DNA of 64,000 nucleotides from Cetorhinus maximus (Eukaryota), in the NCBI RefSeq assembly GCF_964194155.1, contig NC_135891.1, positions 85,808,001 to 85,872,000 of the forward strand, written 5' to 3'. The notes below the pieces were generated by a model. It saw nothing but the letters and a program-made list of their open reading frames with translations, was not told the DNA's origin and ran no database searches. Made by a program: the position numbers and the translations under genes. This document shows positions 1 through 64,000 of the stretch, in pieces. Every line of letters begins with the position of its first letter. The stretch's first letter is position 1.

Positions 1-381
1 GTAGATCAGCGATCACAGGGGTTATGGGTGAACGGAACTTGGTGCAAGTTAGGATACAGGCAGTAGCGATTTGGATAACCTCAGGACTGATGATGATGGC
101 TTTGGTCTTTGCAATATTTGATTGAGGGGAATTGAGAAAAAATCCATTATTTGTGTTTTACAAATTTGACACAAAGAAATTGTCAATAACTGGCATTGTA
201 TTGATTGGTGTTTAATATCTAAATCACCATGGAAGGACATTGTGTTTTTCGATCATGGCTCTTACTGAACAACCTTAACAGGTGCGGAGTGTGGGGTGAC
301 TTCCACAGTTCAAATTGATCTCCTCAAAACAATGTTGGAGTCCCTCAGTGCTCTATTAGAGAATTAGCTTAGGTTTCTTAC

Positions 382-504
382 CAGACTAGGGTAGCTCTTC
401 CCATACTCCTGCTTCCAGCTTTCCCATTCCTCGTCAATGATTGGGTTTGTCGAGGCCATGGAGATAACAGTCAGGATGTACGTTACAACCAGGAAAAATA
501 CCAT
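382..504 (-). CDS. First coding exon of a fourth cathepsin L-like copy (copy 0); the rest lies left of the window
   Basis: MVFFLVVTYILTVISMASTNPIIDEEWESWKQEYGKSYPSL, identical in protein to the intact copy; donor GTAAG. Whether the whole gene is intact cannot be seen. Confidence 0.85.
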
Positions 505-1429
505 GATGAAATGTTGAACACGTCAAACCAGTAACAAGGTTGGTTTTCTTTGTGAGAAGCTATGGGCAATAAAATCAGAAGAACGGGGAGAGGTAATGCA
601 AGAGCATAATCTCACAATCCTACCCTTGTTATTTCGATGCCCTGTAAATAAACCAATATTCTTTGTATGATCTCAGCATTTTTTGGCGGAATAATAACAG
701 AGTGGGACAAAGGTGTAGGATTTAGTCTTCAATTGTTTCAAACGACAACTGTAGAAAGAATATGTATCACCAATTCATTCAGATGAGGGGAGAATCAGTT
801 TGTGAAATTTACAATGCCACTGCTAATTATGCACATGAAAATGGTCAATTCCCACATGCCCAACAATTTTTACTTACCTTGAAAACATAGTTGCAGAGAT
901 TGTAAAGTTCACTGACTGGTGTGGGACCTGAAGATAAATTTGGGGAGAGACCGAGCTGCCTTTAGCCTCAGATTTGACTTACTCAATGTTCCCAGTCAGT
1001 AATACATTGATGGCAGGAATCTGTGATTCCAACTGCATTTGTCCGGATAATGTCTCACCATTTAGAAAATACTGTTGATTGTGTGACGTTCCACTATCTG
1101 CTTTTCTATGGAAGTGCTATTCTATTTACAGAATATCAATTTCTCTGCTCAAACAGATTTCAATCTAATTTTTTTTCCTACATAACATTTAATTACAATA
1201 GTGTGGTCCAGACAATTCTACCAATGAAACTGATGTTCTTTGCTGTATTACACTGTTGAATCATGCAGTGTATTTTTCAGTGTATTACTTATACTTTAGC
1301 ATCAGGCCATTCAATTACAGAACATAGAATAGAGAGTATATTTTACTCACCTCACAAGGACACCTCTGTTATTTAAATGACACAAACCATTTGGGACCAG
1401 ATTGTGTTGTACTGGAGTTTGAACTGGGG

Positions 1430-1437
1430 TTTATATA
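1430..1437 (-). promoter_or_regulatory. TATA box (TATATAAA) of copy 0
   Basis: Paralogous to 43489-43496; donor GTGAGT at 1350-1345; CCAAT at ~1482. Confidence 0.6.
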
Positions 1438-2010
1438 CCCTTAGAAGATGCAAAATAAACTAATTGCCTCCTAAATTCCACCAATTAGTTCACAGGGCCT
1501 GAAGCATTATCTTGGTTCATTTTTTATCTAAAATTATCTGCCACCTGTAAGTTCCAACCATCAGTCACACAAATTACACATAAATACCCTGCATGGTCTT
1601 AATAACATGGTCTTAAAAGATAAAGAGTTGATGTAAATCTTATTTTCATGATGCAAGTTGCTAATTTCTTGGTGGAAAATCCAATTAGCTTTTGAAGATT
1701 CTTGGCAATGTGTTTTGTCATGGATCCTTCATGCCCCAGGATTGTGTCTCTGGCAATTATCCAATTTTCATTGTCTTCAGCAGGTGAGATTTTTCAGCTA
1801 ACTGGTATGTACAGATTCTACAATCACCTGTAGCCCATAATGTGATGACAGGCACTAGCAGTATCTCCACACCAGGGCTGCAACATCAGCTCTTTGTGTG
1901 TGTACCTGCAGCAGAGTTAACAAAATCAGTTTGTTTTTTCTTTTACAACATGTTTCTCATTTCACTGAATAAAATCTTCACCAGTCCCATTTGTATTGTC
2001 ATGATAATCA

Positions 2011-2537
2011 TTATAGGAAGGATGTGATTGCACTAGAGACAGTGCAGAGGAGGTTTACCAGGATGTTGCCTGTGCTGGAGAGTTTTAGTTCTGAGGAGAG
2101 ATTGGATAGACTGCGTTATTTTGCTTGGAGCAGATGAGATTGAGGGGGACATGATTGAGGTGTATAAAATTATTAGGCGCATACATAGAGTAGACAAGAA
2201 GGAACTTTTCCCCTTGATGGAGGGATCGATAACCATGGGGGCATAGATTTAAGGTAAGCGGCAGGAGGTTTAGAGGGGATGTGAGGAAGAGTTTTTTCAC
2301 CCAGAGGGTGGCGGTAATCTGGAACTCACTGCCTGAAAGGGTTGTAGAGGCAGAGACCCCCATAACATTTAAGAAGTATTTGGATGTGCACTTGCGATGC
2401 CATGGCATACGAAGCTATGAGCCTAGTCCTGGAAATTGGGATTAGAATAGTAAGGTACTTGTTTGACTGGTGCAGCCATGAAGGGCCGAAGGGCCTTTTT
2501 CTGTGCTGTAGACGTCTATGACTCTATGACTCTATGA
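2011..2537 (+). mobile_element. CR1 LINE 3' fragment (HER1-like), unit 1
   Basis: Translates as YRKDVIALETVQRRFTRMLP...EERLDRL...LRGDMIEVYKI (CR1 ORF2 C-terminus); ends in a (ctatgact)n tail. Confidence 0.88.
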
Positions 2538-4114
2538 CAATGAATTAAGGGGAGCAGGCGGGCTCTTGAAGCGAGAGCGCCAATCAGAGAGCTTGGACAT
2601 TGGAAGCAGGTGCAGAATGCCATTCACGATGAATGTGGGAGCGGGTGCTTCAAAATGGAACTGTCCTCTTTTTTAATATTTGAAATAAAAAATGGCCTTG
2701 CTGGCCAAGCCACCAATGTTGGAAGGGGAGGGGCCCTTTTACACAGCAGCCTGCAGCTGCAGCTACACCTCAACAAAGTGGGAAGGCCTCCCAACCTGCC
2801 TAGGTGCTATTTTTATCATCTACCCTCTCACTTCTTTTCCAGGGTCTAGCAGGGAAAAAAATTCAGATCAGAGTCACTCCACTCATATCATCACCAGAAA
2901 AATGGGGCTGTAGATGTCTTATCTCCAACTGTACTCTTGTCTCGCAGGAGAACTTCATAAACTTGCTTATTGGTTCCAAATTTCCTCATTGTCTTCACTA
3001 CTTTAGAATGAAAGAACTTGCATTTATATTGTGCAATTCCCCATCGCAGGCTGTCTAAAATTGCTTTACAACCAATGAAGTACTTTATACATAACTTCTG
3101 TTACAGACAGGAGTGGGGAGAAAATTTAAACAGCACTAACTTCTCCTCCCACCACCCACCCATAAACAGAAAGATGTTTTTGATTTGTTTCCCTCTTTAC
3201 AAGCAGCGGCATATTTTCCAACCCCTCAGTTTTGGTGCGATCCAATTTTCTATTAATAACCCCACAGGAAACTCAAGACAGGATGAACTCAAAGGGGTTA
3301 GTCTAGTTGCACACGCAAAATGCAAATGGAGGATTCTCACATTGCCTCCACATTCAGACAGTAAAGAGAGGGATAGCGAAAAGAAAGATTTACAGTGCAG
3401 AGACCACAGAGAAAAGGAATATTGTTTCACATGGGTTCCAGAGTCCAGAATCAAAACCTAATGAATCAGTCTTGTTGGCAATAGTACATAATTTCCTACA
3501 GAGGCAGTATGGATGGAGCCAGGTGTTCAGCCTGGGCAGAGGTCCTTTCTGAGAGGCTGCCACTTGGACAGTAAACAGCAGATTGAGCTATTCAGCCCAG
3601 CAAGGCAATATTATTTGTTCAACAAGCCAGAGGCCTAGGTCAAGTGTATTTACCTTTCCATAATGTCATCAACAAAGGAGGTTTATCCAGTGTTTGGAAT
3701 TTGGCTTGGTGTCCAGACTGATAATTTCTTAGCCATTATGGGTTAGAAGCAATGTTTGAGAGGCCATTCTATTAGTAAACGTTCCATCACTGCTGGCCAG
3801 CCTGGGTTATCAAATACAAAGGGCCTTCGATGTAGCTCCTTTTGAAGTTGGGCTGTGCAGTCCCCGGGTGATGGCTAGTAGCTCCTCAGAGATAATGAGG
3901 TGTGAGATTTCCCAAACTGCAAAGTGGCTTCTTTTGATCTGGGGTCACAAACAGACACAATTTCAGCCATTTTAAGGACCTTTGTTCATCTTTTAACATT
4001 TTGGAAATAGCCATGAGGATATCTATATATATTTTATAAAAATTTAGTGTGAGTTCTTAGTTAAATTCTTAAAAATATCCCTAGGTCCTGTGGCGACTCT
4101 GATATCCAATAGCA

Positions 4115-4472
4115 GGGGAGACAGGGTAGTGGCAATGTCACTGGATTACATATCCAGTGGTGCAGGCTAATGCTCCAGGAGCAACATTTCAAATCCCACT
4201 GTGACTGGTGGAACTTTAATTTAACAAGTTAAAATGGCAACTATGAAAAAATTGTCAAAATCCATCCGCTTCACTGATGTCCCTTCGGGAAGGGGATTTG
4301 CTGTCCTTGCCTGGCATGGCTTATATGTCACTCCAGATGCACAATAATGTGGTTGACACTTAAGTGCCCTCTATAATTCCCTAACAAGCCATTCAGTTCA
4401 AGGATAATTACAGATGGGCAACAACTGCTGCCCTCGCCAGCGATGCCCACATCTCATCAAAAAGAATTTAAA
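4115..4472 (+). mobile_element. tRNA-derived SINE with a LINE-derived 3' tail (paralogues ~25047-25404 and ~46174-46530)
   Basis: Degenerate A/B-box head (gtagtggcaatgtcactgga...ttcaaatcccac). Tail gatgggcaac...gccagcgatgcccacatc resembles the 3' end of the LINE at ~10450-10520 on the minus strand. Confidence 0.7.
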
Positions 4473-6396
4473 CCGTGGTCACCACAATAGAGTCCAGCTG
4501 GCCTTGAGCTCAGGTCGGAGCTGGTGCTGCTGATCTGGTCGGTCTGCAAGGCAGAGAGGGTGCCGGACATGGACAGGAATGTGAAGCACTGGCTGGATGA
4601 CTTCCTCGTTGGGTTCCTGAGGGTGTGAAATGATACTCGGGCCTCCCCTCCCTCCAGCACTGAGGCGATGGTGGCAGGAGCACTATGCTTCTGACATGAA
4701 GGGAACCATAGCCAGCTTCAACATCAGCGGCAGCAGAGAAGCACAGCGCAGGTTCCAGAACTTCTCAGCCCTCAGGGACGGGAGTATGCGGTGTGCTTCC
4801 TGCAGGAAAGCATTACCGTTCTGGGAGACAAAGCTAAGTGGCTCCCGAAGTGGTGAGGGGGAGGTCTACATGAGTCATCTAGCCTCCAATTCTGGCGGGG
4901 TGGCTATCTTGCTTGCCGCACATTTTCAGCCGGAGATCTTGGGAGTCAAGGAGCCAGTGTCAGGCCGATTGCTGCACCTTACTGTGCGCCTGGGGGGGGA
5001 CATGGCGCTTCACTTTGTGAATGTGTACGCTCCCCTGGGCTCACAGCAGCAAGCGACATTCTTTGAAGAAGTGCCCACTCATCTCAACTCCATTAACGTG
5101 GGTGAGTGCATCGTCCTTGGGGGTGATTGTAACACTCAGGAACTGTCTCAGTGCCCAGCATTAGGTGTGAGTAAGTTGAGGGATCTGGTCCGTTCCTTCG
5201 ACTTGGTGGATGTCCGGCGACATCTCCATCCTGACTCCAAGGTGCTCACTTTTGTGTCCCCTGGGGTCGGAGCGTCCAGAATCGACCAACTTTACATTTC
5301 CATGGCCTTCGTGTCCTGCGTCCTGTCGATCTCCGTGTAACAGGTGCCTTGCTCAGACCGCCGCCTGGTGTGGGCAGAACTCGCTCCATTCTGCACTCGG
5401 ACGGGGTCCACGTACTGGCACTTTAACAACCTGCTGCTGGAGGACGAGCAGTTCCTGGACTCATTCTGTCGTTTCTGGGCCAGCTGGAGAAGGAAGCGGG
5501 GAGGCTTCCCCTCTTTGAGGCTATGGTGGGACGTGAGCAAGGCTCATGTCCATGTCTTCTGTCAGGAGTGTACGCAAGGGGGTCGACAAAGGCAGAAATC
5601 CAGGGTCGAGGAATTGGAGAAGGAGGTGCTTGACCTGGAGGCATGACTCGGTCAGCCCAATGCAGACCCGGACATGGGACAGGCATACGAAGAGAATTAG
5701 TGCGCAATACGGGGACTACAATTCATCCGGTCGCGTGGCACATATGTGAGGTCACGGATTCAGTTCCTTAAGGACCTGGACCGCGTCTCCCCATCTTCTA
5801 CTCGCTGGAAAAAGGCACGGGGTCCGTCAGCAGCTCCTTATGCTTGAAAAAGGCACGTGGTCCGTCAGCAGCTCCTTATGCTGCTGGCCGACGACGGATC
5901 CCTCCTCTCAAATCCGGAGAGTATCAGGGCACATGCCGAGCCTTTTACACTGCCTTGTTTTCTCCAGATCCGTCCAGCGAGGGTGCTCGCAGAGTTCTGT
6001 GGGAGGACCTGCCGCAGGTCGGCCCGGAGGATGCCGGAACGATTGTCTCCCCATGAGTCTGCGGGGGCTGACCCCTCAGCGCCCTCAGCAGCCTCTCTAG
6101 AGTCTAGTCCTCGGGGCTGAAAGGGCTGACCGAGGAGTTCTTCAGGGCAATCAGGGACGTCCTGGGGAGCGACTACACGGAGGTCCCGGGGGGAGAGTAT
6201 CACAGCCGTGGAAATGCCCCTCTCATGGCGCAGGTCAGTCATCGCCCTGCTGCCTAAGGGGAATTTCCGCCTCCTTAAAAACTGGCACCCGGTCTCCCTC
6301 CTCAGCACGGATTATAAAATCTTCGCCAGGGCCATGTCTTCTCGCCTTGGCACCGTGCTGGGCAACATGATCCACCCTGACCAGTCTTACACGATC
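4473..6396 (+). mobile_element. Tx1-clade (L1 group) non-LTR retrotransposon fragment: ORF1 end, APE endonuclease, start of RT; degenerate
   Basis: ORFs 4630-5340, 5344-5646 and 6208-6408: IASFNISG, SGGVAIL, VNVYAP, IVLGGDCN, SRIDQLYIS, YWHFNNLLLED, IALLPKG, KNWHPVSLLSTDYKIFARAMSSRL, IHPDQSY. Contains stops and frameshifts. Confidence 0.88.
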
Positions 6397-8375
6397 AGGC
6401 GTGTCTGATTCAGGCAAGCAAGCTATAAAAGTTTGCCTAGCAATTGGGAATGAAGGTCCACACAGGCTGACCACGTCAGGATTAACGGAGGAAGAGCTAA
6501 AGGATCCCCAAAAGACATGGATTACATTGGAAGACTGGGTCAAATTCAAGTTAAACTTCAATATTCATCAACTAGAGTTCACGTCATTTCAACAACAGCC
6601 TGCAGAACCCATAGATCACTTAGTCAGCAGATAAGAGAAAAGGGTACGTATTGTGATTTTTCAAACGCAGACAGAAATGTTGAGTTGGTGATCCTACCCA
6701 CTCCTTTGGAAGCGTTACAGACAAGCCCAAAACGTATAGCACTGAAGAACTACTCAAGGATAGACGGAAATACAAGGTGATCCTCACAGGTCGATGAAAC
6801 TTACAGATCCTCAGTACAACCTCAATTGTTGAAGCACTCACTAGAACACCCAAACCTAGCATATCATATGGAAGGCGTGGCTTTCTGCATGCACCAAGGA
6901 ACTTCCCAGCTTTCCAGCAATTCTGCAAAGATGTGGCAGAATGGACCATTGGCAGTAGCAGTGCACCAGGCAAATGCTGATGCAGCTACAAACGGCCATG
7001 TACTGATCCAAACAGACCGTACACAATGGCTACCTTCAAGCAATAAGCATGACCATCCATTATCCCGTCAGAAACATGTACATGAGGTAACATGTGCATG
7101 ATGAGGCAAAGAGCGGAAAACACATGTTTCACACTGCCAATCTCATGGAATACGTTGATGCCATCTCACTATCTGAAGTATTTGCCAAGATTAAAATTAT
7201 CTGTCCCAAGAAAGTTATCAACTGCTGATTATTGGCTAAGATTGACGCAGGGCAAATGTCAACATACTCCTTCTGCAAATTGTAAATGAAAGATATCTTC
7301 AGGCCATGGTTCACTTAATCCATGTGCAGGATCCAGCATCTTGGAGTGCAAGTACAATCAATTCTCTTGGGTGTCAAAGATGTTCTTCATCGTAGAAACA
7401 AAAGGCCCAGCGAGTGCTAAGTAGTATGTCATAAATGATCAGCTGTCCTTTTTTACTAACAGGCAGCTTGATGTTCATTCTTGATCATGCACAACTTAGA
7501 ATTATCAGAAAGCAAAGCATGATTTTCTTTAAAAAATTAAAAATATAAAGTTCAGGATTGAGATCATCAGGTTTTAAGTTACAGCCCAAAAGGAACATGA
7601 GAGAAGCAGATTTGTTGCTGACATACAGCAGGTTGTGGTTTACCAACATGCCATGGCCTTGCACTAGTTACAATCCACGGAATCAGCCAGACCTCAAAAG
7701 GCCGATCAATCTCAAGAACTACTGCTATAACCTCAATACCTGTCCTAACATCAAAACATCCAGATTGTTTTTCCACAAAATTGGCAGTTTCAAAAGAGCT
7801 ACAACATTACACATGTAGGAGAATGCAAGTCTGTCAACTGATCTGGTGCGTTTTGCGCAATGCAAATGCCAGCAGCTGCAAGAAGAAACAGCAAAATATT
7901 GTACAGGACTGAAACTGTGGAAAACCTAAAGGATGTGCTGATTGGATTTAGTATGTTCAGAACATGTAAGGCCATTTTGGCCTTACCAGGATGAGCTAGA
8001 CATCTCCCGGAGAGTCAATTTTAAAGGCATGCCAGTCATCATATCAGAATATTTGCAAATTGATATTCTTCAACAATGTCATCACTCACAAGTGGGCACA
8101 AATCAGACAAGCCGACCTGCAAGAGACAGTTTATTGGCAGGGTATGAACAAAACATTGAGGTCATTTCCAAGAAGTGCATGAAATGTCAAGAGAAAATGC
8201 CAAGTCAGCACAAAGAATCGCTGATTCCGCATTAAGTTCCCACACATCCTTGGTCCAAATTAGCAGCTGATCTCTTTCATGTTCATGGTACTGATTTCAT
8301 TGTCATCATCGATTACTTTACCAAATAACCCATCATTTGACCATTACACAATATGTCAAGCACAACTGTCATGCA
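6397..8375 (+). mobile_element. Gypsy/Ty3 LTR retrotransposon internal remnant (gag, protease, integrase N-terminus; RT/RNase H missing)
   Basis: Gag-like FQQQPAEPIDHLVSR; aspartic protease motif KIDTG (seen in units 2 and 3); integrase Zn-finger HHSQVG...CMKCQ followed by PWSKLAADLF and IVIIDYFTK. Confidence 0.82.
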
Positions 8376-8434
8376 CAGGATACAGGAGGGAACTCTTCCT
8401 GACAGTGCTATGGGAAAACTCTTCCGTTGTCTGA

Positions 8435-10060: not shown

Positions 10061-10440
10061 GAGAGAATGTTCCAATCCAATGTCTCTATCGACCAAAACT
10101 CAAACTTGAAAACAATGCAGAGTGTACTAAAATAGGGATCCCCTAGTTAGTCAGACTAGGTTGACTGCAGGCTAATTGGATCCAATCTGACTAAGACTGG
10201 TCCACTTCCAGCATGAATTCTGTTGATTGTTTTACTCCCGATGACACCACCACAACAAGGGTTTTCAGCCCGATTTTATACTTTGGCTGCATGGCAACTG
10301 CTGTCGTGCTTAATTCTTCTGAGCCACTTGATTGGCAGTCTCTGATTGGTTTCTGGATTGTGTGGTATGATTCAAGAATTGTCACCTCATTTCTGCAGCA
10401 AATTTAAACTAGCCTTAAAACATTTTCTTATATTTACTAT

Positions 10441-11660
10441 AATTTTTACCATTCTTTCACGGGACATGGGTGTCACTGGCTAGACAAGCATTTTTATTGC
10501 CCATCCCTAGTGGCCCTTAAGAAGGTGGTGGTGAGCTGGCTTCTTGAACCGCTGCAGTCCCTGTGGTGTAGGTACACCCACAGTGCCGTTAGGAAGGGAG
10601 TTACAGGATTTTGACGCAGTGACAGTGAAGGAACGCTGATATAGTTCCAAGTCAGGATGATGTGTGGCTTTGAAGGAAACTTACAGGTGGTTGTGTTGCC
10701 ATGATCTACTGCCCTTGTCCTTCTAGGTGGTAGAGGTCACGAATTTGGAAGTTGCTGTTGAAGGAGTTTTGGTGAGTTCCTGCAGTGCATCTTGTAGATG
10801 GTACTCCCTGCTGCAACTGTGCGTCGGTGGTGGAGGGATTGAATTTTTGTGGATGTGATGCCAACCAAGTGAGGGCTGCTTTGTCCTGGATGCTGTCAAG
10901 TTTCTTCAGCATTGTTAGAGCTGCACTCATCCAGGCAAGTGGAAAGTATTCCATCACACTCCTGACTTGGGCCTTGTAGGTGAACAGGCTCTGGGGAGTC
11001 AAGAGGTAAGTTACTCTCCACAGAATTCCCAGCCTTTGACCTGCTCTTGTAGCCATAATGTTTATATGGCTGGTCCACCAGAACGCTGATAGTGGGGTTT
11101 TAGTGATTGCAATGTCATTGAATGTCAAGAGGAGAAGGTTGTATCCTCTCTTGTTGCAGATGGTCATTTCCTGGCACTTGTGTGGCAAAATGTTACTTGC
11201 CACTAATCAGCCCAAGCCTCAATGTTGTCTGGGTTTTGCTGTATATGGGCACCAGATGCTTCAGTATCTGAGGGGTCACGAGTGGTGCTGAAATAGTGTG
11301 CAATCATCAATAAACATCCCCATTATTGACCTTATGATGGAGGGTAGACCATTCATGAAGCAGCTGAAAATGGTTGGGCCTAGGACACTACCCAGAGGAA
11401 TTCCTGCAGTGGTGTCCTGTGACGGAGATAAATGACCTCCAAATACCACAGCCAGCTTCCTTTGTGCTAGGTATGATTCTAACCAGCGGAGATCTTCCAT
11501 TGACTCCAGTTTTTTTGGGCTCCTTGATGTGACACTTGGTCAAATACTGCCTTGATTTCAAGGGCAGTCACTCTCACCTCACCTCTTGAGCTCAGCTCTT
11601 TTGTCCATGTTTTGGACCAAGGCTGTAATGAGGTCAGGAGCTGAGTGACCCTGGCGGAAA
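10441..11660 (-). mobile_element. CR1/L2-group LINE, 5'-truncated (RT domain + 3' end), unit 1
   Basis: RT motifs WLESYLAQRK, PLGSVLGP, MFIDDCTLF, YKAQVRSVMEY in ORFs 11276-11500 and 10706-11203; ALDIKAAFD in the paralogues. Confidence 0.88.
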
Positions 11661-18589: not shown

Positions 18590-18910
18590 AAAGAGCCCAG
18601 GATTCTTTATTCTGGTGGAGAGAAGCCTCAGGGTGATATTATTCAAGTAATTAAAATACTAAAGAAAAAGACAAATTCAATCCAAAAATACATATGGGAT
18701 TGTCACAGATTGCAGAACCAAGAGACTGGGCTCAAACTAGGAGAAAAGATGGAGAGACAGTTTAGATTTAACTATTTTACATGGTGTTGGGTGGTGGGGG
18801 TGGTGAGGGCGGAGGTGGGGTGGGGTGTGACGGAAATGTATGCAGTAGATTGCCCACCAAGTCAGTGGAGGCAAATAATGCAGAAAAGTTTAAGAGAGAT
18901 TTAGGTAGCT
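18590..18910 (+). mobile_element. Old degenerate CR1 fragment (paralogues ~39700-40020 and ~59200-59520)
   Basis: tattctggtggagagaagcctcagggtgatattattcaagta...aaaatactaaag resembles the CR1 segment SLEKRRLRGDLIEVFKI. Confidence 0.55.
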
Positions 18911-33259: not shown

Positions 33260-33356
33260 TCAGATTAGAGGGTATGAAGCACAATAGGTAATTCCACACA
33301 TGTCCTTGCCCATCACTAAGCGCATGTAGCCACTCTCACCCCATGATGTTCCCCAG
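33260..33356 (-). CDS. Intact cathepsin, exon 8 (C-terminus)
   Basis: (S)WGTSWGESGYMRLVMGKDMCGITYCASYPLI*. Confidence 0.93.
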
Positions 33357-43465: not shown

Positions 43466-43488
43466 TTGTACTGGAGTTTGAACTGGGG

Positions 43489-43496
43489 TTTATATA
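43489..43496 (-). promoter_or_regulatory. TATA box (TATATAAA) of the intact cathepsin gene
   Basis: Lies ~80 nt upstream of a consensus donor (GAG|GTGAGT at 43410/43409), giving a short non-coding first exon; a CCAAT element sits ~45 nt further upstream. Confidence 0.65.
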
Positions 43497-46530: not shown

Positions 46531-47071
46531 CTGTGGTTGCCACAATAGAGTCCAGCTGGCCTTGAGCTCAGGTCGGAGCTGGTGCTGCTGATCTGGTCTG
46601 TCCGCAAGGCTGAGAGGGTGCCGGACTTGGACAGGAATGTGAAGCACTGGCTGGATGACTTCCTCGTTGGGTTCCTGAGGGTGTGAAAGGATACTCGGGC
46701 CTCCCCTCCCTGCAGCACTGAGGCGATGGTGGCAGGAGCACTATGCTTCTGACATGAAGGCAACCATAGCCAGCCTCAACATCAGCAGCAGCAGAGAAGC
46801 ACAGCTCAGGAGTTCTTCAGGGCATTCTGGGACGTCCTGGGGAGCGACTTCATGGGGGCCCAAGGGGGAGAGTATCGCAACCGGGGAAATGCCCCTCTCA
46901 TGGCACAGGGCAGTCATCGCCCTACTGCCTAAGGGGAATTTCCGCCTCCTTAAAAACTGGCACCCGGTCTCCCACCTCAGCACGGATTATAAAATCTTCG
47001 CCAGGGCCATGTCTGCTCGCTTTGGCACCTTGCTGGGCAACATGATCCACCCTGACCAGTCTTACACGATC
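46531..47071 (+). mobile_element. Tx1-clade retrotransposon fragment, unit 3 (internally deleted)
   Basis: Endonuclease start is fused directly to the RT start at ~46810 (ORF 46754-47083). Confidence 0.85.
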
Positions 47072-50972: not shown

Positions 50973-52195
50973 AATTTTTGTCATTCTTTCACGGGACGTG
51001 GGTGTCACTGGCTAGACAAGCATTTTTATTGCCCATCCCTAGTTGCCCTTAAGAAGGTGGTGGTGAGCTGGCTTCTTGAACCGCTGCAGTCCCTGTGGTG
51101 TAGGTACACCTACAGTGCTGTTAGGAAGGGAGTTACAGGATTTTGTCGCAGTGACTGTGAAGGAACGCTGATATAGTTCCAAGTCAGGATGATGTGCGGC
51201 TTTGAAGGAAACTTGCAAGTGGTTGTGTTGGCATGATCTACTGCCCTTGTCCTTCTAGGTGGTAGTGGTCACGAATTTGGAAGGTGCTGTCGAAGGAGCT
51301 TTGGTGAGTTCCAGCAGTGCATCTTGTAGATGGTATTCACTGCTGCAACTGTGCATCGGTAGTGGAGGGAGTGAATTTTTGTGGATGTGATGCCAATCAA
51401 GTGGGGGCTGCTTTGTCCTGGATGCTGTCAAGTTTCTTCAGCGTTGTTAGAGCTGCACTCATCCAGGCAAGTGGAAAGTATTCCATCACACTCCTGACTT
51501 GACCCTTGTAGGTGAACAGGCTTTGGGGAGTCAAGAGGTAAATTACTCTCCACAGAATTCCCAGCATCTGACCTGCTCTTGTAGCCATAATGTTTAAATG
51601 GCTGGTCCACCAAAATGCTGATAGTGGGGTTTTAGTGATTGCAATGTCATTGAATGTCAAGGGGAGAAGGTTGTATCCTCTCTTGTTGCAGATGGCCATT
51701 GCCTGGCACTTGTGTGGCAAAATTGTTACTTGCTACTAATCAGCCCAAGCCTGAATGTTGTCTGGGTTTTGCTGTATATGGGCGCCAGATGCTTCAGTAT
51801 CTGAGGGGTCACGAGTGGTGCTGAAATAGTGCGCAATCATCAATAAACATCCCCATTATTGACCTTATGATGGAGGGTAGGCCATTCATGAAGCAGCTGA
51901 AAGTGGTTGGGCCTAGGACACTACCCCGAGGAATTCCTGCAGTGGTGTCCTGCGACTGAGATAAATGACCTACAACAACCACAACCATCTTCCTTTGTGC
52001 TAGGTATGAATCTAACCATTGAAGATCTTCTATTGACTCCAGTTTTGCTAGAGCTCCTTGATGTGACACTTGGTCAAATGCTGCCTTGATGTCAAGGGCA
52101 GTCACTCTCACCTCACCTCTTGAGCTCAGCTCTTTTGTCCATGTTTTGGACCAAGGCTGTAATGAGGTCAGGAGCTGAGTTACCCTGGCGGAACT
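50973..52195 (-). mobile_element. CR1/L2-group LINE fragment, unit 3
   Basis: ORFs 51809-52111 and 51397-51720. Confidence 0.88.
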
Positions 52196-52855
52196 ATGAC
52201 TTCATCATTGCTGGGTCAAAAGGCTGGAGATTACCCTGAAAATCATCATGGGAGGACTATCCCTCAAAAAGACCCATCACTAGCCTCTCATCACAACTAA
52301 GGATTGGCAATAGCATGACCTTACCAACACTGTTCTCATCCTGTTAATTACTTTATAAGGGTAAGCTGGAGCAAAGTGACTTGTACGGTTTTGAACGTTG
52401 TTGCAGAATTATAAAATGTTCCAGCCCAAAAATAAGCCATTTAGCCCATCGAGATAGTTTTCTTCACTTGAGCCATCTAGTATCCTTCCACTCACATGAT
52501 CACACACTGTAATCTTTACAATTCTCTTATTCAAGCAGCTATTGCATTCCCTCACTAGGAGGAGACAATGACAGTCAAATTATTTGAAACTTTCTTTTAT
52601 TGATTAGAAGAAGCACCATTCAAACAATCCAAGACCACAGCAACAAAATTCAGTTCACATTGCAACATTTTCAAAAATGCACTTGAAGACAAGGTGAGGT
52701 TGTTCCATGTTGCATCTAGAATTGATAGAGTCTTTAATACAGATTTAGGCAAGAAACTGGAAGCTCAGTTACAATATCAAATAGTTGCTAAATACATTAC
52801 GTCATCTAAAATAATTCCTTCGGCATTTTTGTTTTCGTAATGAAGTCGAAATTCT

Positions 52856-55800
52856 TCAGATTATAGGGTATGAAGCACAATAGGTAATTCCACACATGTC
52901 CTTGCCCATCACTAAGCGCATGTAGCCACTCTCACCCCAGGATGTTCCCCAGCTAGAAAAGGAAGACGATTTGTTAATATCTAAAACCAACCTCATTACA
53001 TACAAAATGAATAGAGTAAGGATCCTTGCAAGCTGCTTCTGTAATATTTGCCACTTTTTCATTTGCCTTGAATGCATTTCGTTTCAGATTATGTTATCAA
53101 CAGGAAATCAGGTTCACTTTACATAGAGTTTGCTTCTGAAGTTATACAATCCATCTAGAAAAACTAATAGGATAATTAGGTGAAATACGAAATGGAAGAG
53201 CCAACATATTTGTGTAATCTTACAGAACAGATTAGTTTTGAGACAATGAGGGATTATTGAGTGCAGCCATAATGGAAGGATAGTTGTCATTCAAATTGCA
53301 TAGCAGAGGACATAGCTAAACCAACAATACAGTGAGCTTTCACATCCTGGGAAGTGGGCTGGGGTGTACACTCAAGGTGGAAACAGTGATTAGCAGCTGG
53401 TCAGCACATTGCTCAGTACATAGGGTCAAGGGAAGAATCAAAGTTCAGTTTTTGCCTCTCATCTTTTCCTGGCTAAATCAATTTGAGAGAGCCAGAGACA
53501 GAGATTTCACTTACTACTCAACAAAAGTGAGGCTGAGAGGCTCTCGGTGAATAAATAAACACATACAGTCTGTGAGAGTACTCTAATGGTAAGTGCCTAT
53601 TAGTTGAGAGACTGCTATGTAGGCAGAGAGCTTACACGGCAATGGGGCAAGGTTAATTATTCTCATTATATTTATCGCACAAGGTGCAATGCGAAATGAA
53701 TGAATCACGTTGTAAAGATTGTATTGTGTTCCTTCATATCTTTTATTGCATTGGTTCGTAATTGGCCTCACCTTCATGATCCTGTTAGGAGGGCCAAACT
53801 CAAGCCTCTGTTCCTTAATCCTTCCATATCATCAGATAATTGATTTCCAGGCCTTCTTGGCCAGCATCCCTCTATATAATCTCTAAGATCTAAAAGATTT
53901 CCATTATGCCTGATGTTCTTAATTTGTAGATATTACTTACCTGTTTTTAATGATCCAATAGCCTTTTGGATGTTCATCCACATACCCGATCACGAGCACT
54001 GAATGATCAATATTCTGATTGTTGCAGTCAACATCGTCAAAGATACCTGTAAAATGGAGGATAGTACTATACATGAAAGTAACTCCAAACTCATCTCTAA
54101 AATAACATTATAAAAGATTGGGAAGGTCAGACAACAAGATTTTGTATTCGTATGCCATCTTTCACCAAGCAACTTGTCCCAAGGTCACCCAAATGGGAAG
54201 CGGTAAAGGAAGGTGACTGGCCTGGTGAAAGAGGGAATTTCAAATGAGAGAAGTAGCAAAGTGAAGATGTTTAGAATATCCCTGAAGATGGAGTGTTACC
54301 CCATTGGTCCTCTTGCATGGATGTCTTGTACAGGGAGATTGTGAGGTAGAATCTGAACCATGGTGAATGAATAAAAGTTTAGAATTTTCTTTACCTGATG
54401 TGTAATATCTGAAGGAATGATGTGATGAACGAATAAGTACTGAAATTGGTCCAACATTTGCCACTAATGTAGCTAATTTTTTCTCAGTATAGTTCTTAAT
54501 CCTTCTGAATCCTTTAACATTGGTGACACTCTTAGAGCTACTAAATAAGCACTTATTGTTCCTCTGTGATTAAAAATATAAGAGTCTGTTTAGCAAATTG
54601 GCTGATAATAATTTCCTTAAACTTCAACATTGTATCACAGGCAAAACCCCACTCAAATACCACAGCCCAGCCTTGTCCTCCTCCCCTATCTCTTATTCCT
54701 TCAACACATCAATTTCAAGTACCTCACCCCCATCAAAGCCTTACTCATTCCAAACTCTCCACAGCCCCTCAGCCAAAAATTCCTAAACAAATCATCCATC
54801 ACTTGGATCCTGTGCATTCCCCTGTCCCTTTCACTCACCGATCAGTATCAGGCCCATCTGGACCCAGCCCTTCCACTCTGAATCTCTCCCTTTCTCTCTC
54901 TCTCTCTCTCTCTCTCAAAGCCCCTTTGCTTTTCTGCATCTTCACAGGCGGGGTGAGGTTTCATGCAGGGTTTTAAAAATTTTAACAATGTTCTGTTGGA
55001 AGTGATGAACATATCCCAACTCATGTGACACTGTCACGTGAGGGGTGTAAGGGAAATTTTATTTTTCTATTTTGAGCTTTTTTACATGTAGAGCCGATCT
55101 CCCTGAGGCTGTACTTAGCCTCAGGGACATGAGTGCGCCCTTTCGTGCACATGCGCGAAAGAGTGCACTTTCGTTTTTGGGCATTACCCCCCGCCCGCAC
55201 AGGGAGCGCATAGCACTTCCCTGTGGACGTCACGCTGGGCGGGCCTTAACTGGCCTACCCACGCAAAATGGCGCCACGCCTCCCATCGGGGGCACCGATC
55301 AGAAGCACGCCCACACGCGCCCGCACGCGCCCGCCCACCAACTTCTCCCCCAATGGGGGGGAAATTCATCCCAAATTGTGATACCTGCCATATCTTAGAG
55401 GCCACTCATATTCAAGGATTCATATTTGATGAATGCCTTTTTTTCACAAGTTTAACTCTTCCTAGTTAATGCTTCACAGCCATTTGATTCATCAAGGAGT
55501 GAGCATCATTGAAGGGTCTTATCATTCAGAAATGTTTATTGGGGAGATACAAGTTCTGTTAGGAAGGACAATGGGCTAATTACTCCACCAATTCACTTTA
55601 AGACTGAAGGGCACCCTTGCTGCTGATATTCAAAATGTCACATGCTTGCCACTTTGCATGAGGATACTCGGATCTAGGCAACTTCTGTAAACACATTTTG
55701 TAATAGCTAAATGAAGCTGTACCTTAAACCAAAATATCTTTCGGAACAGCTTTTATGACAGCCCTGTTTAACTGTGGGAAATGAAGGCAGTCAGTGTACA

Positions 55801-58800
55801 GTGTGCAGCAAGTGTACCTTTGCTTGGTAAGGGTATGACTGATCAGATTGAATGCCATGGTCTCGCACGTATTCCAAGGCGCGGTATGGCAAGTTTCCAT
55901 TACACCCATAATTCTTATATCCATCAGAACAGTCAATGATGTTTTGTACACTCAGGTCCATGAGTTGGTTCCTTTTCCTTGCCAACTGACCTTCCACAGC
56001 TCCGACTGCAGTAAACGCATAGCAGGATAAACAGTAGCCCTGAAGGGAAAACAGATAAGTTGGCAAATGCTAAAGTTTTAAAACCTTTTCTTCATGATCT
56101 TCACCATTTCGATTGAAAACTAATTAAGAGTTCAGATGGTTGACTATATCTTTGCCTTGCTTGCTGATATACACTCCAAGAGGAGAGAATGGACATGAAA
56201 TCTGTTCTGCAAAATATTCAGCTCCAGACTATTGCCCTTACCTGAATGTCCATTCACTTTGGGGTGTCCAAACCTCAACTCATGGTCCATATCCTGCCCA
56301 AGTGGCAGAACACAACAGTCCAGCCCCTCTCACCATAATTTGAGGACAGCAGCATAGCTTGAGAATCAAGAACCAGGTGAATTGCAATGTGCAAGTGAGG
56401 AGGAGAAAGCACAAGTGGCCAAGGAGTATAGATGATTACAAGGCTTTCATCTATGCCACCTCTGTACTTTCTTAAGCCCAATAATGTGGTGAAATCGGGC
56501 AAGTCATATCATGCTTAAGGGACTCCACGGCTTCAATTTTTAACTGCCCAATTAAGTGGCAATTAAGGCCTCAATCCAGCTCCATTACCATAATACCCTG
56601 AGCATTGGAAGGCAGGCAAGAGTGAGGAGGTTGTTTTTTAACCAATGTTGTTAAAAGGAGGGTTAGGAAGGGTGGGGGTCCATCTTCAAGGGGTTCCCTG
56701 TATGCGTCAGATGAACATCACCCCCCCCCAACCAAGATGGTACGCCACCTTTTCCCCCCCTTTGCCTCCAAAACCTGCCCCTCAACCCCCTCACGCTCCC
56801 TCCCTAGGGCATCCAATCCCTCCCTGACGAACAAACCCCAGAATCATCTATTCCAGTGTCCATGACACTTCCAGTCCCAGCAGCACCCACTTCTCTCGCT
56901 TGGCACTGCTGGGACTGCAAGAGCTGCCAGCCGATCTAATTGGCTCTTCAGGTTGGGACTTCTTCCACTGAGGGACGGACATTCCATTCTCTGCTTGTTA
57001 CGGCCACCCACAGCCTATTATCGCAGCAGGGCGGCCTTATTTAACGCATGTTGGTTTCCAGTCAATTTCTCTTCCAGGATGCAAGCAATACCCTCCCCCC
57101 ACCCCACCCCTGATAAAATTCAACGCACAGAATCTTGTGGTTGCACACACTTCACATAAGAACACATTGGCTCATTATCATTGTTTTTTTGAACCATGTA
57201 ATTTCATAACTTCAAAGTATTAAAAGTCCACTTGTAAATCAGCTGTGATTATTTCATTTTCTCATACAGGCCTTTGAAAATCTGCCAAGCATGCGAAGTG
57301 TTAGAGCAGAACATTAACACTGGGAAATTCTGAAGACCCTTAATGTGTATGTATCTTTATTAACATCCAGGGGAAGAATTTCTCGGCGTCACCACACGTC
57401 ATTCTGATGCTCTATTTAAAAACTAATTAAAGTAATTAACTGAGCTGCCTGTCCAACCTTAAGATTGGCGGGCAGGTGAAGAGCCCAGGCAGCCTTCGCA
57501 TTTATCACAAAACCGCATCCACGGGTGGGATGAAGATTCATGCAGGGTTTAAAAATTAAAAGAAGATTTTATTAAAGTTCATTGACATGTCCCAGCTCAT
57601 GTGACACTGTCACATGAGGGGACATGTCTTAAAAATTTTTTTTTCATTATTAAAACTTTTCAAAATCAGACTAATTTCCCTGAGGTAGCTCTGTGCCTCG
57701 GGGAGATTTCTGCACACTTTCACGCTCATGCGCAAAAGAACACAGGCCCCAGCTCAGCCTACTCCCCCTGTCCGCACAGGGAGAACTCAGCACATGCTGG
57801 TGTGCGTCACGCTGGGCAGGCCTTAATTGGCCCGCCCACTCATAATGGCAGCACCCAGGCGATCGGCAGCGCATTCGCCCGCACCTGCTCCCACCAAACC
57901 AGACCCACGCCCTGCCCCCCACCCCCCCCCGCCCCACCCCACAATGGGGATAAAATTCTACTCATGAAAAAATGTTTCTCTGTTACCTATCTGAATCAGA
58001 CACTTAGACCCCAATTGCTTGATGCAGTTCTTAATATCGCTACCTACTGGCTCTTAGAGGAACAGCACCCATGAATTGTTCCCCCTGCTATTTGCCACAG
58101 TTCCAATTTCTCGAAACACAAGGTGGTTGAAAATGTTAAAAGCTTGAAAATAATAATCCCTGGAGTCAAAATATTAAACAAGAATACAGCCCCAACAAAC
58201 TCAAACATAGCAACTGACATGCATTGAACAGAAATGGTGTGAAGTAGTAGGTACTTAGTTCTTTACTTTACTAACATAGCCCATTTGACGCCAGTCCACC
58301 TCTTTGGGAAAATGAGCAACGTTCTCCATTTCTTCCAGTTCCGTCAAAATCTGACAACACATCATCGGTATAATTTGCCATTTCGGAAATCCTTGCATCA
58401 GTGAACAAATGATCAAACTCCATTGGCGTCTGGAAGAAATAGTTTCACAATGCTTACTATGAGACTTGTTGTGTTGTTATAATGATATTAAAGCGCCAAT
58501 CACTCATAAGGTATTTGGTAAACAAGCTGTGGCTTCCTTTATTTAGACAAGGCACATGGGGACATTTATACAGAGGTAGAAAGCTTGAAGACACCAGCAG
58601 CAGAGCTGGCTGCTGTGTGTTCTGTTGAAAAGCAAAAGTGAATTTGATTGCAGCATGACAACGCTAGAGGGAGGTGGGTCATGCTTGAATCCCTTAGGGG
58701 CATATTACAACAAGACTATTTCTATAAAAAATGCAAAGCCAAAATTTATTTTTTTGCACAGTTGTAGCTCCACATTGTCCCTTTATGTTTATCAAATTCG

Positions 58801-61800
58801 ACATGATTGATGATAACAGAGATGGAACTTTCTAGCCTAGATGCATATAAAGTGGAAGCTCTGTGGAGTCAATGGGGCACTATGGCAGAAAGCTCTTGAC
58901 TATCAAGATTCTGGGAGATTTGAAGGAAGAATCATTTTGATTTTAAATAAGGTTTGTGACAGCGGGCCGCACAGAAAACTAGCCCACAAGTCAAGGAAAC
59001 ATCAAATATGAGCCAAGCGTTTGACGTGGGTTAGTAATTGGCTAAAGTGAAAAGTGGTTGTAAATGGAGCTGTTTTGATGTGTATAATTCTGGGTGCAGT
59101 CTTGCAGCAAGAATAACAAAGCATTGCAAACAATGCAGAAAAGGTAAAACAAGCTGACAGGTAGGTTCAGACATTGAAGTGAGAAGAAGTGGTTAAAGAA
59201 GTGGCCCTGGATTCTTTATTCTGGAGGAGAGAAGCCTCAGGGTGATATTATTCAAGTATTAAAAATACAAAAGAAAAAGATAAATTCAATCCAAAAAAAA
59301 AAAATTTGGGATTGTCACAGATCGGAGAACCAAGAGACTGGGCTCAAAATAGGAGAAAAGATGGAGAGACAGTTTAGATTTAACTATTTTACATGGTGTT
59401 GGGTGGTGGGGGTTGTGGGGGCGGTGGTGGGGTGGGGTGTGACAGAAATGTATGCAGTAGATTGCCCACCAAGTCAGTGGAGGCAAATAATGCAGAAAAG
59501 TTTAAGAGAGATTTAGGTAGATGATTGAGGGAGTGGATGATTGAGAGAAATTAGGTTTTCAAAATAGCCAGATTGTCTACAAAGACTTTTCGGATTTTGT
59601 CCAGACTTCCAAGTTCCTTCTTTAATATTTGTTCTCAGGATGGGGCCTTTTGCCGCAAGGCCACATTCATTACCCAGGTCAGCCCCCTTATTGAACCATT
59701 GCATTGTAGTGATGTTGAGCGATTGATTGTTCATGGAAATGTTTTGTTCACATGAAGTTAGTTATATAGATGATGATGACAACTAGACCAATGGACATAG
59801 AAATAATTCCAGCTGATATATTCTTTTCCAGCAAGGCAGGTTGGCTGAACTGGGATAAAGTTACTCTCCATCATGCCCAGTATCAAACTAGCAAATCTGA
59901 CATTATTTGCATGACTCACCAAGTCTCCAAAGCGATTCATGGCCATTTCATACATACTAAGTATTGTGAGCTTCAATCTTCTCCAGGTTGTCCAGCCAAA
60001 TTTCCCTCCTGGCCTGATCTTCCTCCTATGCAAAGAGATTGGGTCATTATAGTATAATACCAATAGAATCCAATGCCCAATGTTATTGCTTGCCTTCAAG
60101 TAGAAAGAAGATACTGAAGTTGGAGACAGCAGGTTCCTTCCATGGGTGAAGGCAATTGAATGCTCAAGTAGTTGGCGGCACCACTTGATGTTAGCTACAG
60201 TGGTAGAACAAGGTAGAGTGACAGAAGTGCATGCATTGTCAAGACCGTCAACATTAAATTTGGAGGCAAGAAGACCCAAAGAAACAATCTCTAGGTCAGA
60301 GCCAGCATCAGAACTGTCAGGAGCAAAGAAAGGAATGGAGAAACCAAAGAAGTTTCAAGAGATCGTTTGGAAATAATTAGGTAAAACACATGGGGTAAAA
60401 GACAATATTCATGGCTCATTTCAATAAGGTATGAATAACCTTGGGATTTAAACTGTGAGCAAAGAGGCCAGGGGAAAAATACAACTTCTCAAATCTGAAG
60501 CAAAGCTTTACATGACACCAAATTTCTTTCTCACAAAATACATGACATATGGAATAGACACTTGGCTAAACCAAGTCATGATGCCGGGCAAGATTTGGAT
60601 GAAGAGGCACCATAAATGTACCCCTAGTGGTGTGGGAACCTACCATTCACATAACAATTAATGGAGCTCCCTCCAATCCTGACAATTTCAGCAGTATAAG
60701 TGAGGGAGCTCCCAGAATCCCCATTCCTGCCCTTTCCCAGGCTCACGTTTGCAGATATACAGACCCATTTTCCTCAAGCTGCAGGGTCCAGTCCAAATTT
60801 AGGTTCTTGAGAACTGTGAAAGCATCCTAGTTTGTCATGTCATGATTGGCTGCTTCCAACAACAACAACTTGTATTCATAAACAGAAGAGTTAAAGCAAA
60901 ATTTGACAGTGAGAAACATTAGGTGATATTAAGGCCGATGCTCAAAAGCTGGGTCAAAAAGGTAGGTTTCAATGAGCATCTTAAAGGTGAAAAGAGAGGT
61001 AGAGAAACAGAGAGCTTTAGGCAGGGAATTTGAGAGCTTGGGACCTAGGCATGGCCATCAAAGGTGGATCAGTTAAAATTGGAGATGTGCAACAATCCAG
61101 AATTTGATGCAGCAGATATCTTGGAGGGTTTTGGGGCTGGAGGTGATTACAGAGATAGGGAGGGACCAGGCTATGGAGGGATTTGAAATCAAAGGTGAGA
61201 ATTTTAAAATTGAGACATTGCTTAACCAGGAACCAAAGTAGATCAGCGAGCACAGGGGTTATGGGTGAACGGAACTTGGTGCAAGTTAGGATACAGGCAG
61301 TAGCAATTTGTATAACCTCCGGTTTACAGAGGATATAACGTGGCCGGCCAGGAGTGTATTTGAATAGTGAAGTCTTGACGTAACAAAGGTACGAATGAGG
61401 GTTTCAGCAGCAGATGAAGTGAGAGAGTGGCAGAGTCAGTCGATGTAAAGGAGGTGGAAATAGGCTGTCTTAGTAATGGCAGAGATATGTGGCCAGAAGA
61501 TTAGTTAAGGGTTAAATATTTCAACAAGTATACAAACAGTCTGGTTCCGCCTCAGACAGCTGCTAGTGGGGTGGGTGGGGATGAGTTGGTAGCTAGAGAA
61601 CAGAGCTTTTAGCTGTGGAACTGAAGATGATGGCTTTGGTCTTTGCAATATTTGATTGAGGGGAATTGAGATAAAATCCATTATTTATGTTTCACAAATT
61701 TGACACAAAGAAATGGTCAATAACTGGCATTGTATTGATTGGTGTTTAATATCTAAATCACCATGGAAGGACATTGTGTTTTTCGATTATGGCTCTTACT

Positions 61801-62038
61801 GAACAACATTAACAGGTGCGGGGTGGGGGGTGGCTTCCACAGATCCAGCTGACCTCCTCAAAACAATGTAGTAGTCCCTCAGTGCTCTATTAGAGAATTA
61901 GCTTAGGTTTCTTACCAGATTAGGGTAGCTCTTCCCATATACCTGCTTCTAGTTTTCCCATTCCTCGTCAATGATTGGGTTTGTCGAGGCCATGGAGATA
62001 ACAGTCAGGATGTACGTTACAATGAGGAAAAATACCAT
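52856..62038 (-). pseudogene. Cathepsin L-like unprocessed pseudogene (copy 3)
   Basis: Exons 62038-61916, 60025-59920, 58429-58255, 56039-55818, 54563-54395, 54046-53941, 52952-52856. Lesions: Trp>TAG (61949-61951); TAG (59957-59959) and 17-nt deletion in exon 3; 29-nt frameshift deletion in exon 4; oxyanion Gln>TAA (58255-58257). Exons 5-8 remain open. Confidence 0.92.
54883..54916. repeat. (CT)n microsatellite (paralogues ~14346-14379 and ~35189-35213)
   Basis: Seen directly; length differs between units. Confidence 0.8.
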
Positions 62039-63599
62039 GGTGAAATATTGAACATGTCAAACCTGTAACAAGGTTGGTTTTCGTTGTGAGAAGCTATGGG
62101 CAATAAAATCAGAAGAACGGGGAGAGGCAATGCAAGAGCATAATCTCACAATCCTACCCTTGTTATTTCGATGTCCTGTAAATAAACCAATATTCTTTGT
62201 ATGATCTCATCATTTTTTGGTGGAATAATAACAGAGTGGGACAAAGGTGTAGGATTTAGTCTTCAATTGTTTCAAACAAAAACTTTAGAAAGAATATGTA
62301 TCACCAATTCATTCAGATGAGGGGAGAATCAGTTTGTGAAATTTACAATGCCTCTGCTCATTATGCACATGAAAATGGTCAATTCCCGCGTACCCAACAA
62401 TTTTTACTAACCTTGAAAACACAGTTGCAGAGAATGTAAAGTTCACTGACTGGTGTGGGACCTGAAGATAAATTTGGGGAGAGACCGAGCTGCCTTTAGC
62501 CTCAGATTTGACTTACTCAATGTTCCCAGTCAGTAATACATTGATGTCAGGAATCTGTGATTCCCACTGAATTTGTCCGGATAATGCCTCACCATTTAGA
62601 AAATACTGTTGATTGTGTGACATTCCACCATCTGCTTTTATATGAAATTGCTCATCTATTTACAGTATATTAATTTCTCTGCTCAAACACTTTTCAATCT
62701 AATTCCTCTTCCTACATAATATTTAATTACAATATTGTGGTCCAGACAATTCAACCAATGAAACTGATATTCTTTGCTGTGTTACACTGTTACATCATGC
62801 AGCGTTCTTTCAGTGTATTACTTATACATTAGCATCAGGCCATTCAATCACAGTGCATAGAATAGAGACTATATTTTACTCACCTCACAAGGACACCTCT
62901 GTTTTTTAAATGACACAAACCATTTGGGACCAGATTGTGTTGTACTGGGGTTTGAATTGGGGTTGATATACCCTTAGGAAATGCAAAATAAACTAATTGC
63001 CTCCTAAATTCCACCAATTAGTTCACAGGGCCTGAAGCATTATCTTGGTTCATTTTTTATCTTAAATAATCTGCCACCTGTATGTTCCAACCATCAGTCA
63101 CACAAATTACACATAAATGCCCCACATGTTCTTAATAACATAGTCTTAAAAGATAAAGAGTTGATGTAAATCTTATTTTCATGATGCAAGTTGCTAATTT
63201 CTTGGTGGAAAATCCAATTTGCTTTTGAAGATTCTTGGCAATGTGTTTTGTCATGGAGCTTTCATGCCCCAGGATTGTGTCTCTGGCAATTATCCAATTT
63301 TCACTGCCTTCAGCAGGTGAGATTTTTCAGCTAACAGGTATGTACAGATTCTACAATCACCAGTAGCCCATAATGTGATGACAGGCACTAGCAGTATCTC
63401 CACACCAGGGCCGCAACATCAGCTCTTTGTGTGTGTACCAGCAGCAGAGTTAACAAAATCAGTTTGTTTCTTTTTTTACAACATGTTTCTCATTTCACTG
63501 AAAAAAATCTTCACCAGTCCCATTTGTATTGTCATGAGAATCAGGACAATTCTCAGCTCAGAGTTGTGTATATTTCAGGGACTCTCTAAGGCCTGGAAT

Positions 63600-63960: not shown

Positions 63961-64000
63961 AGATGTTCAGGACTGAAAGGGTTAATGTGTGTCTAGGGAA

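Follow-up and report, generated by a model that had tools for sequence, protein, structure and literature searches.

The stretch of the basking shark (Cetorhinus maximus) genome analyzed here, 64,000 nucleotides of contig NC_135891.1 (C13; positions 85,808,001 to 85,872,000, assembly GCF_964194155.1) and hereafter the window, carries tandem copies of a divergent cathepsin L-like gene. This raises the question of whether the locus is a growing set of specialized proteases or a duplicated gene most of whose copies have decayed. We consider it rather probable that the locus is a five-unit array of a gene likely belonging to the cts12 branch of cathepsins, two of its copies being whole and three pseudogenes, and that this gene encodes a predicted active cysteine protease of the secretory pathway with a reshaped pocket, probably at work in one restricted cell type and not in general lysosomal turnover. 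Coordinates are window positions, negative numbers lie to the left of the window, and 60 kb of flank was added on each side.

The array was found to consist of five units, A to E, from -32,264 to 70,714 (about 103 kb in all). The units are about 18-24 kb long with their gene copies head to tail at a spacing of about 20-21 kb (self-BLAST), and self-comparison gave aligned blocks of up to 15 kb at 92-95% identity, units as a whole being 92-96% identical. The window holds the following parts of it.

1-64,000, no strand: interior of the five-unit tandem array (self-comparison and flanks)
1-6,394, no strand: right end of unit B, which starts at -14,378 (flank comparison)
4,621-6,394, + strand: decayed remnant of a long interspersed nuclear element (LINE; endonuclease/reverse transcriptase) ending at the unit junction, with a weak RVT_1 match at 6,130-6,405
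6,395-27,278, no strand: unit C (repeated junction)
27,279-47,069, no strand: unit D (flank comparison)
47,070-64,000, no strand: unit E, running on to 70,714, with its own insertion from 63,544

A single junction sequence, a LINE reverse-transcriptase remnant joined to unrelated sequence, occurs four times (-14,378, 6,395 [6394/6395], 27,279, and 47,070). Both outer ends of the array have GAT in common, and the LINE reverse-transcriptase frame extends past the right end. The repeated junction together with GAT at both outer ends points to a single microhomology-joined duplication, with later units added by unequal crossing-over. The array would have begun when a first duplication was sealed by 3 bases of microhomology within the LINE remnant, one copy would have died early in its history, and unequal crossing-over would then have multiplied whole and dead units together to leave about two working copies. 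Other decayed retro-element remnants, at about 6,400-8,400 and 10,400-11,650, are repeated at the same places in other units; the latter region has a reverse-transcriptase match at 11,276-11,536, and the other resembles an LTR-type (long terminal repeat) integrase by eye, with no Pfam match.

Each unit has one gene on the - strand. With splicing at canonical AG/GT sites it has seven coding exons of 123, 123, 204, 222, 169, 106, and 97 nucleotides encoding 347 amino acids; promoter and splice features are predictions from sequence. When the DNA of exon 4 was used to search the whole genome, all four scored matches lay inside the array, copy A having no exon 4. The following gene features lie in the window.

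382-504, - strand: exon 1 of copy B (signal peptide and start of the propeptide), ATG at 504
1,430-1,437, - strand: predicted TATA box of copy B, TATATAAA
12,321-21,428, - strand: copy C, pseudogene (splicing and frame reading)
33,260-42,563, - strand: copy D, whole gene of 347 amino acids with signal peptide, I29 propeptide, and Peptidase_C1 domain, ATG at 42,563
42,441-42,563, - strand: D exon 1, 123 nucleotides
40,418-40,540, - strand: D exon 2, 123 nucleotides, I29 (Pfam, E 2e-11)
38,721-38,924, - strand: D exon 3, 204 nucleotides, acidic linker with a 29-nucleotide tandem duplication, net gain of 8 amino acids
36,029-36,250, - strand: D exon 4, 222 nucleotides, catalytic Cys, Peptidase_C1 (Pfam, E 2.5e-24)
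34,701-34,869, - strand: D exon 5, 169 nucleotides
34,247-34,352, - strand: D exon 6, 106 nucleotides, catalytic His and Asn
33,260-33,356, - strand: coding part of D exon 7, 97 nucleotides
about 33,008-33,013, - strand: D AATAAA
43,410-43,496, - strand: D predicted TATA box (43,489-43,496) and predicted short non-coding first exon with a GT donor near 43,410
52,856-62,038, - strand: copy E, pseudogene (splicing and frame reading)

Copies B and D have whole frames of 347 codons, exons 2-7 of copy B extending beyond the window's left edge to -8,603, while A, C, and E are pseudogenes. The B and D proteins differ at six residues, none of them at the pocket positions tabulated, and have sequons at N101 and N248. 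Copy C has lost 17 nucleotides from exon 2 and 4 from exon 6, and has stops at the codon of the oxyanion Gln and in exon 5. Copy E shares the 17-nucleotide loss and the oxyanion Gln stop, and in addition has a stop in exon 1 and an exon 3 of 175 nucleotides. Copy A (ATG at -20,238) lacks exons 4 and 5 and part of exon 6 and has a damaged exon 2 acceptor. The oxyanion Gln (Gln150) stop is common to A, C, and E. The TATA box, which the sequence-only reading (an earlier description of the window from its letters) had already noted, is present but intact in only two of the five copies: TATATAAA is found in B and D, and TATATCAA at that place in A, C, and E. A further non-coding exon upstream, the second, at about 885-1,069, was considered and dropped, having no good acceptor. 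The three NCBI models at the locus are all malformed (232, 362, and 217 amino acids), P0001 being the model of copy D.

The sequence-only reading was right that there is a tandem array of a divergent cathepsin L-like gene (head-to-tail blocks of 92-95% identity, seven-exon models) in a cartilaginous-fish genome. Its count of one intact copy, two pseudogenes, and one partial copy is correct within the window, but the partial copy, B, is whole beyond the edge, and to its left stands one more copy, the broken A, which makes five. It placed the end of the array at 63,543, where the insertion specific to unit E begins; the true end is 70,714.

Non-coding divergence among copies was 4.1-5.9%. Coding divergence was 0.96% between B and D and 2.7-5.2% for the other nine pairs. 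B and D differ at 10 of 1,044 coding versus 392 of 9,615 non-coding positions (Fisher p 1e-8), C and E at 35 of 994 versus 478 of 9,787 (p 0.06); in these comparisons a signature of purifying selection is seen for B and D only. Informative sites across these four copies grouped B with D and C with E 152 times versus 28 and 18 for the other groupings, with A mixed. Given this pattern, whole and dead copies alternate along the array, and dead copies were themselves copied. Exon 3 has an 8-residue insertion in A, B, and D and in each of the three white shark models, while that of copy C has 180 nucleotides, the length found in non-lamniform orthologues. From this distribution the first duplication would seem older than the divergence of basking shark and white shark. 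In the tree the white shark models cluster together, apart from B and D. The insertion itself (38,796-38,850) comes from the tandem duplication of 29 nucleotides, which lengthened the exon by a net 24, and the 175-nucleotide exon of E has one repeat fewer.

That the array is an artefact of assembly is highly improbable. No read contig spans a whole unit, which an artefact would fit. However, the 4-6% non-coding divergence and the copy-specific indels are unlike collapsed haplotypes, and the structured history of B, D, C, and E, the single repeated junction, and the several alleles among read contigs also argue against it. Read contigs carry alleles of several copies, intact and lesioned, although the runs may come from the assembly's own sample. 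At 18,617-18,741 one contig is an exact match to copy C while another is a variant, and both forms of exon 2, with and without the 17 nucleotides, were found.

The sequence-only reading went on to propose a tissue-restricted secreted protease, for example for hatching, egg case, uterus, or gland secretion, and set the array beside the tandem expansions of teleost ctslb and the rodent placental cathepsins. The rodent placental cathepsins and testins form a tandem birth-and-death cluster with an altered active-site cleft, and testins lack the catalytic Cys. The array resembles them in its turnover and altered cleft, and one model here is labelled 'testin-2-like' by NCBI, but it belongs to an independent lineage, keeps the catalytic Cys, and has only two working copies. 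A TATA box and a signal peptide would suit an adaptive expansion of this kind. Duplicates also recur: records per species are mostly one, but white shark has three NCBI models that group together and horn shark two that are nearly identical. The 3' ends of the NCBI models are wrong both here and in white shark, as would be expected if the tissues used for annotation contained little of the RNA, and carp cts12A is testis-restricted according to PMC13095802. On the other hand, three of five copies are dead with lesions in common, and the two whole ones are only six residues apart, none at the tabulated pocket positions, so that the array is no large functional expansion of many diversifying copies. 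The orthologue-bearing species include egg-laying and live-bearing sharks and rays, and retention of the gene in both argues against a role confined to one mode. The region moreover duplicates readily, its flank holding another duplication of 95-96% identity. We therefore find an adaptive gland-protease expansion unlikely. The copy states bear out the birth-and-death turnover that had been proposed: the array is an ordinary product of tandem duplication and decay with about two working copies, and consists mostly of copied dead genes.

The gene itself has a wider distribution. Orthologues were named in 15 shark and ray species, which makes this an old shark-and-ray orthogroup rather than the lineage-specific family first supposed. 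An exon 4 search gave 11 matches among 36 candidates, 10 of them shark or ray proteins with 73-100% identity. With the horn shark protein as query, 13 of the best 120 of 2,071 matches belonged to the array-gene family (the query and 12 at 53-75% identity) and the rest reached at most 46%; no chimaera was among the family rows in these best 120 of 2,071. In skate a public contig of 1,342 nucleotides (P0392) encodes a whole orthologue and fits a spliced transcript.

Trees were made from 84, 45, and 37 rows, and approximately unbiased (AU) tests were run on the 45-row tree with the array family and a neighboring sister gene constrained. The array family forms one clade in all three trees (99; 100/98; 100/99), within which lamniform, catshark, carpet-shark, and batoid rows each group together, and the cathepsin gene next to the array is its sister. 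The array gene is not the shark CTSL orthologue: a Cetorhinus gene on C2 groups with vertebrate CTSL (100/95) and holds that place, while the gene on C22 is ctsl.1. Forcing the family together with shark CTSL alone was rejected (p-AU 0.043). The sequence-only reading was right that this C1A protease is divergent and distinct from the orthologue of housekeeping CTSL. A grouping with K/S was not rejected (p-AU 0.32). The family grouped with a cluster of cathepsin genes on the array chromosome and with ray-finned cts12 (gar, Polypterus, teleost) at 94, 95/81 (45-row tree), and 99/94. The array gene likely lies within the cts12 branch, a placement that the trees favor and do not prove.

Counts of cathepsin L-type exon 4 in the Cetorhinus genome are lower bounds. 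Outside the array gene, about 11 matches lie at 79.1-81.1 Mb of C13, another next to the array, and single ones on C2 and C22; ten of the further cathepsin genes were rebuilt, two only in part. Pockets vary among the roughly 11 cathepsin L-type genes of the cluster at 79.1-81.1 Mb. Exon 4 is identical in two of its copies, at about 80.94 and 80.99 Mb, which face opposite ways. In several sharks and rays and in one chimaera, related cathepsin genes lie together on a single contig; in the sharks and rays it is the contig bearing the array family.

The predicted protein belongs to the C1A papain family, with Pfam matches on five of seven exons: exon 2 matches I29, and all four mature-domain exons, 4-7, match Peptidase_C1. 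The I29 propeptide (E 2e-11) has the ERFNIN- and GNFD-type motifs of the cathepsin L-like subgroup, at residues 43-62 and 76-82. The catalytic set Gln19/Cys25/His159/Asn175, which the family keeps, corresponds to Q150, C156, H295, and N315 in B and D; all 15 family rows have Cys25, His159, and Asn175. At position 23 these rows have Leu (10), Ser (4), or Asn (1) and never Gly, whereas Gly23 is found in all CTSL-labelled (16/16), K/S (13/13), and cts12 (5/5) rows. Tyr26 is present in 14 of 15 family rows, versus Trp26 in every non-family row; Pro68 and Leu133 are each found in 14 of 15, and Cys205 in 12 of 15. Positions 26, 67, 68, 133, 157, and 160 line S2, the main determinant of specificity, according to PMC7658999. 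As judged from these alignments, the family pocket is both conserved and remodelled (G23L/S, W26Y, P68, L133, C205).

The mature domain has a net charge of +4 to +25 in all 15 family rows, and the propeptide of -10 to -19 in 14, the remaining row being truncated. The model of the catshark orthologue has a predicted local distance difference test (pLDDT) score of 87.9, with the acidic linker under 50. It is about equally similar to procathepsins L, K, and S in Foldseek, with template modelling (TM) scores of 0.81-0.83 (0.82 to 1cs8).

A number of observations weigh against a selected, active cts12-type enzyme. The pN/pS ratio of B and D is 0.47, from the small count of about 10 changes, and gene conversion limited to exons could mimic the selection signal. 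In copy B, TG replaces AG just upstream of the first coding exon, and its 5' splicing is uncertain. Loss of Gly23 could lower activity. Basic mature domains occur elsewhere, in cathepsin K (+3 to +16) and two cluster genes (+9 and +21). The family branch is long, the 37-row tree puts K/S inside the cluster (86/89), and a position as sister of all CTSL was not rejected (p-AU 0.25) any more than kinship with CTSK/S was. The deep placement of the family is soft. No CTSK or CTSS orthologue was found in the Cetorhinus assembly by family and protein searches, perhaps through real loss or an unassembled GC-rich region, and a newt CTSK query gave no new locus among 60 matches in the genome; it follows that a separate K/S gene is not at hand to demonstrate that the array gene is not K/S.

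These last points are also what would favor a functional stand-in or fast-evolving relative of cathepsin K/S, serving cartilage, teeth, or antigen processing: the missing K/S gene, a basic mature domain like that of K, and an AU test compatible with K/S kinship. Several orthologues even bear the NCBI name 'cathepsin K-like'. Against this, identity to K/S is 44-48%, the best trees keep K/S apart (100/100) as a separate clade, and the pocket lacks the K pattern of Tyr/Phe67, Met68, Gly/Ala133, and Leu/Met205, having L67/P68/L133/C205. The neighborhood also differs. The right-hand neighbor is a Saf4/Yju2 gene, and matches to GOLPH3-type and HORMA-type genes, the K/S neighbors in mammals, lie on other contigs than the array. 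Neither C4650 nor the 140 kb surrounding the HORMA match on C37 yielded a cathepsin exon. The K/S genes may be unassembled, since one GOLPH3-type match sits on an 11-kb contig. On balance we regard a K/S substitute as improbable.

Placement in the cts12 branch also has to be set against the known members of each clade. PMC13095802, a paper of 2026, resolves the ctsl.1, cts12, and ctsla clades and reports a marked expansion of cts12 in chondrichthyans and sturgeons. The trees favor a grouping of the array gene with cts12 and the about 11 same-chromosome genes (95/81), and the seven-exon layout is shared, but mature-domain identity is 46-49% and cts12 has Gly23, Trp26, Trp67, Met68, and an acidic mature domain. 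With CTSL/ctsla and the tandem teleost ctslb it shares the fold, the ERFNIN/GNFD-type propeptide, the catalytic residues, and Leu67; it differs from CTSL in identity (45-49%), in that the true CTSL orthologue is another gene, on C2, in the mostly acidic CTSL mature domain (-5 to -17), and in exon 6, which has 118 nucleotides in CTSL here and 106 in the array gene.

The statement that no chondrichthyan equivalent had been described does not fully stand, given the cts12 expansions above and a catshark cathepsin, 'ctsl2', that branched outside the L1, K, and S clades in PMC8923501. We found no literature on the subfamily itself, most subscription journals being outside coverage, and nothing on cathepsin with hatching gland and shark, on 'procathepsin L-like' with shark, on six orthologue accessions, or on five of six terms of shark reproduction. 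Mentions of cts12 in 10.1101/2025.10.20.682618 and PMC11840104 concern other matters. The array gene could be catshark ctsl2 itself, which PMC8923501 reports in haematopoietic cells and as very abundant in yolk-sac membrane (3,469-4,497 transcripts per million, versus 112 in intestine). However, ctsl.1 and about 11 other cluster genes likewise lie outside the L1, K, and S clades, and we hold this identity to be decidedly improbable.

A conserved and rebuilt pocket makes a specialized role of the subfamily likely. The enzyme would be made as a zymogen restrained by the I29 propeptide, the acidic linker offsetting the basic mature domain, and propeptide removal would be triggered by acid. The mature enzyme would bind acidic polymers rich in glycosaminoglycan or mucin, as cathepsin K does; according to PMC13410547, positively charged residues of cathepsin K bind chondroitin sulphate for collagen cleavage. 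Its cleavage specificity would differ from that of CTSL. As to the site of action, a blood-cell or granule compartment and the gonad or reproductive tract are equally possible guesses, cartilage or tooth resorption and a general lysosomal site being each somewhat less likely.

The sister gene lies at about 85,767,999-85,772,680 of C13 (window about -40,000 to -35,300) on the + strand, tail to tail with copy A. It has a GT donor right after the signal peptide, no exon 2 match, and a predicted 269-residue frame without the I29 prodomain, and it keeps Cys, His, and Asn. Its orthologues in bamboo shark and horn shark (P0243, P0246), placed with it at 100/100, likewise have no I29 match, though their N-termini look unreliable. 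The neighboring gene thus appears to lack an inhibitory prodomain, which is an unusual state for a cathepsin L-type enzyme. We entertain, tentatively, a conserved pair of sharks and rays, a basic enzyme with rebuilt S1/S2 and a sister without I29, which would act in an elasmobranch-specific way in reproduction, in the blood cells of the embryo, or in the remodelling of cartilage, perhaps replacing cathepsin K; the idea is doubtful.

Left of the cathepsin genes a segmental duplication was found, C13 85,694,000-85,721,600 against 85,736,000-85,760,100, 93-98% identical and about 38-43 kb apart; 75 open frames sampled from it gave no credible Pfam match. The nearest recognized gene to the right is of the Saf4/Yju2 family (window about 107,400-113,800, + strand); human YJU2 and YJU2B lie on 19p13. 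Among 150 of 286 candidate open frames in the flanks, one reverse transcriptase, two Saf4/Yju2, and one weak PNMA match were found. Elsewhere, matches on C128, C27, C32, and C7 resemble cathepsins B, H, W/F, and C by motif reading, and scattered Peptidase_C1 matches occur on C32 (5.93-5.98 Mb), C1061, C353, C706, and C191. The W/F-like match on C32 suggests another multi-copy cathepsin family.

Altogether, the gene is of more importance than the array itself. It represents an unnamed elasmobranch cathepsin subfamily, probably within the already noted cts12 expansion. Sharks and rays have retained it, and it shows fixed substitutions where cathepsins L, K, and S hardly vary. The database labels it now carries (cathepsin K-like, procathepsin L-like, testin-like) are wrong, and corrected gene models matter for counts of shark cathepsins. 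Catshark and skate keep a simpler locus suited to testing. If the gene is tissue-restricted, it would open a way into the biology of the egg, the embryo, blood cells, or cartilage in elasmobranchs.

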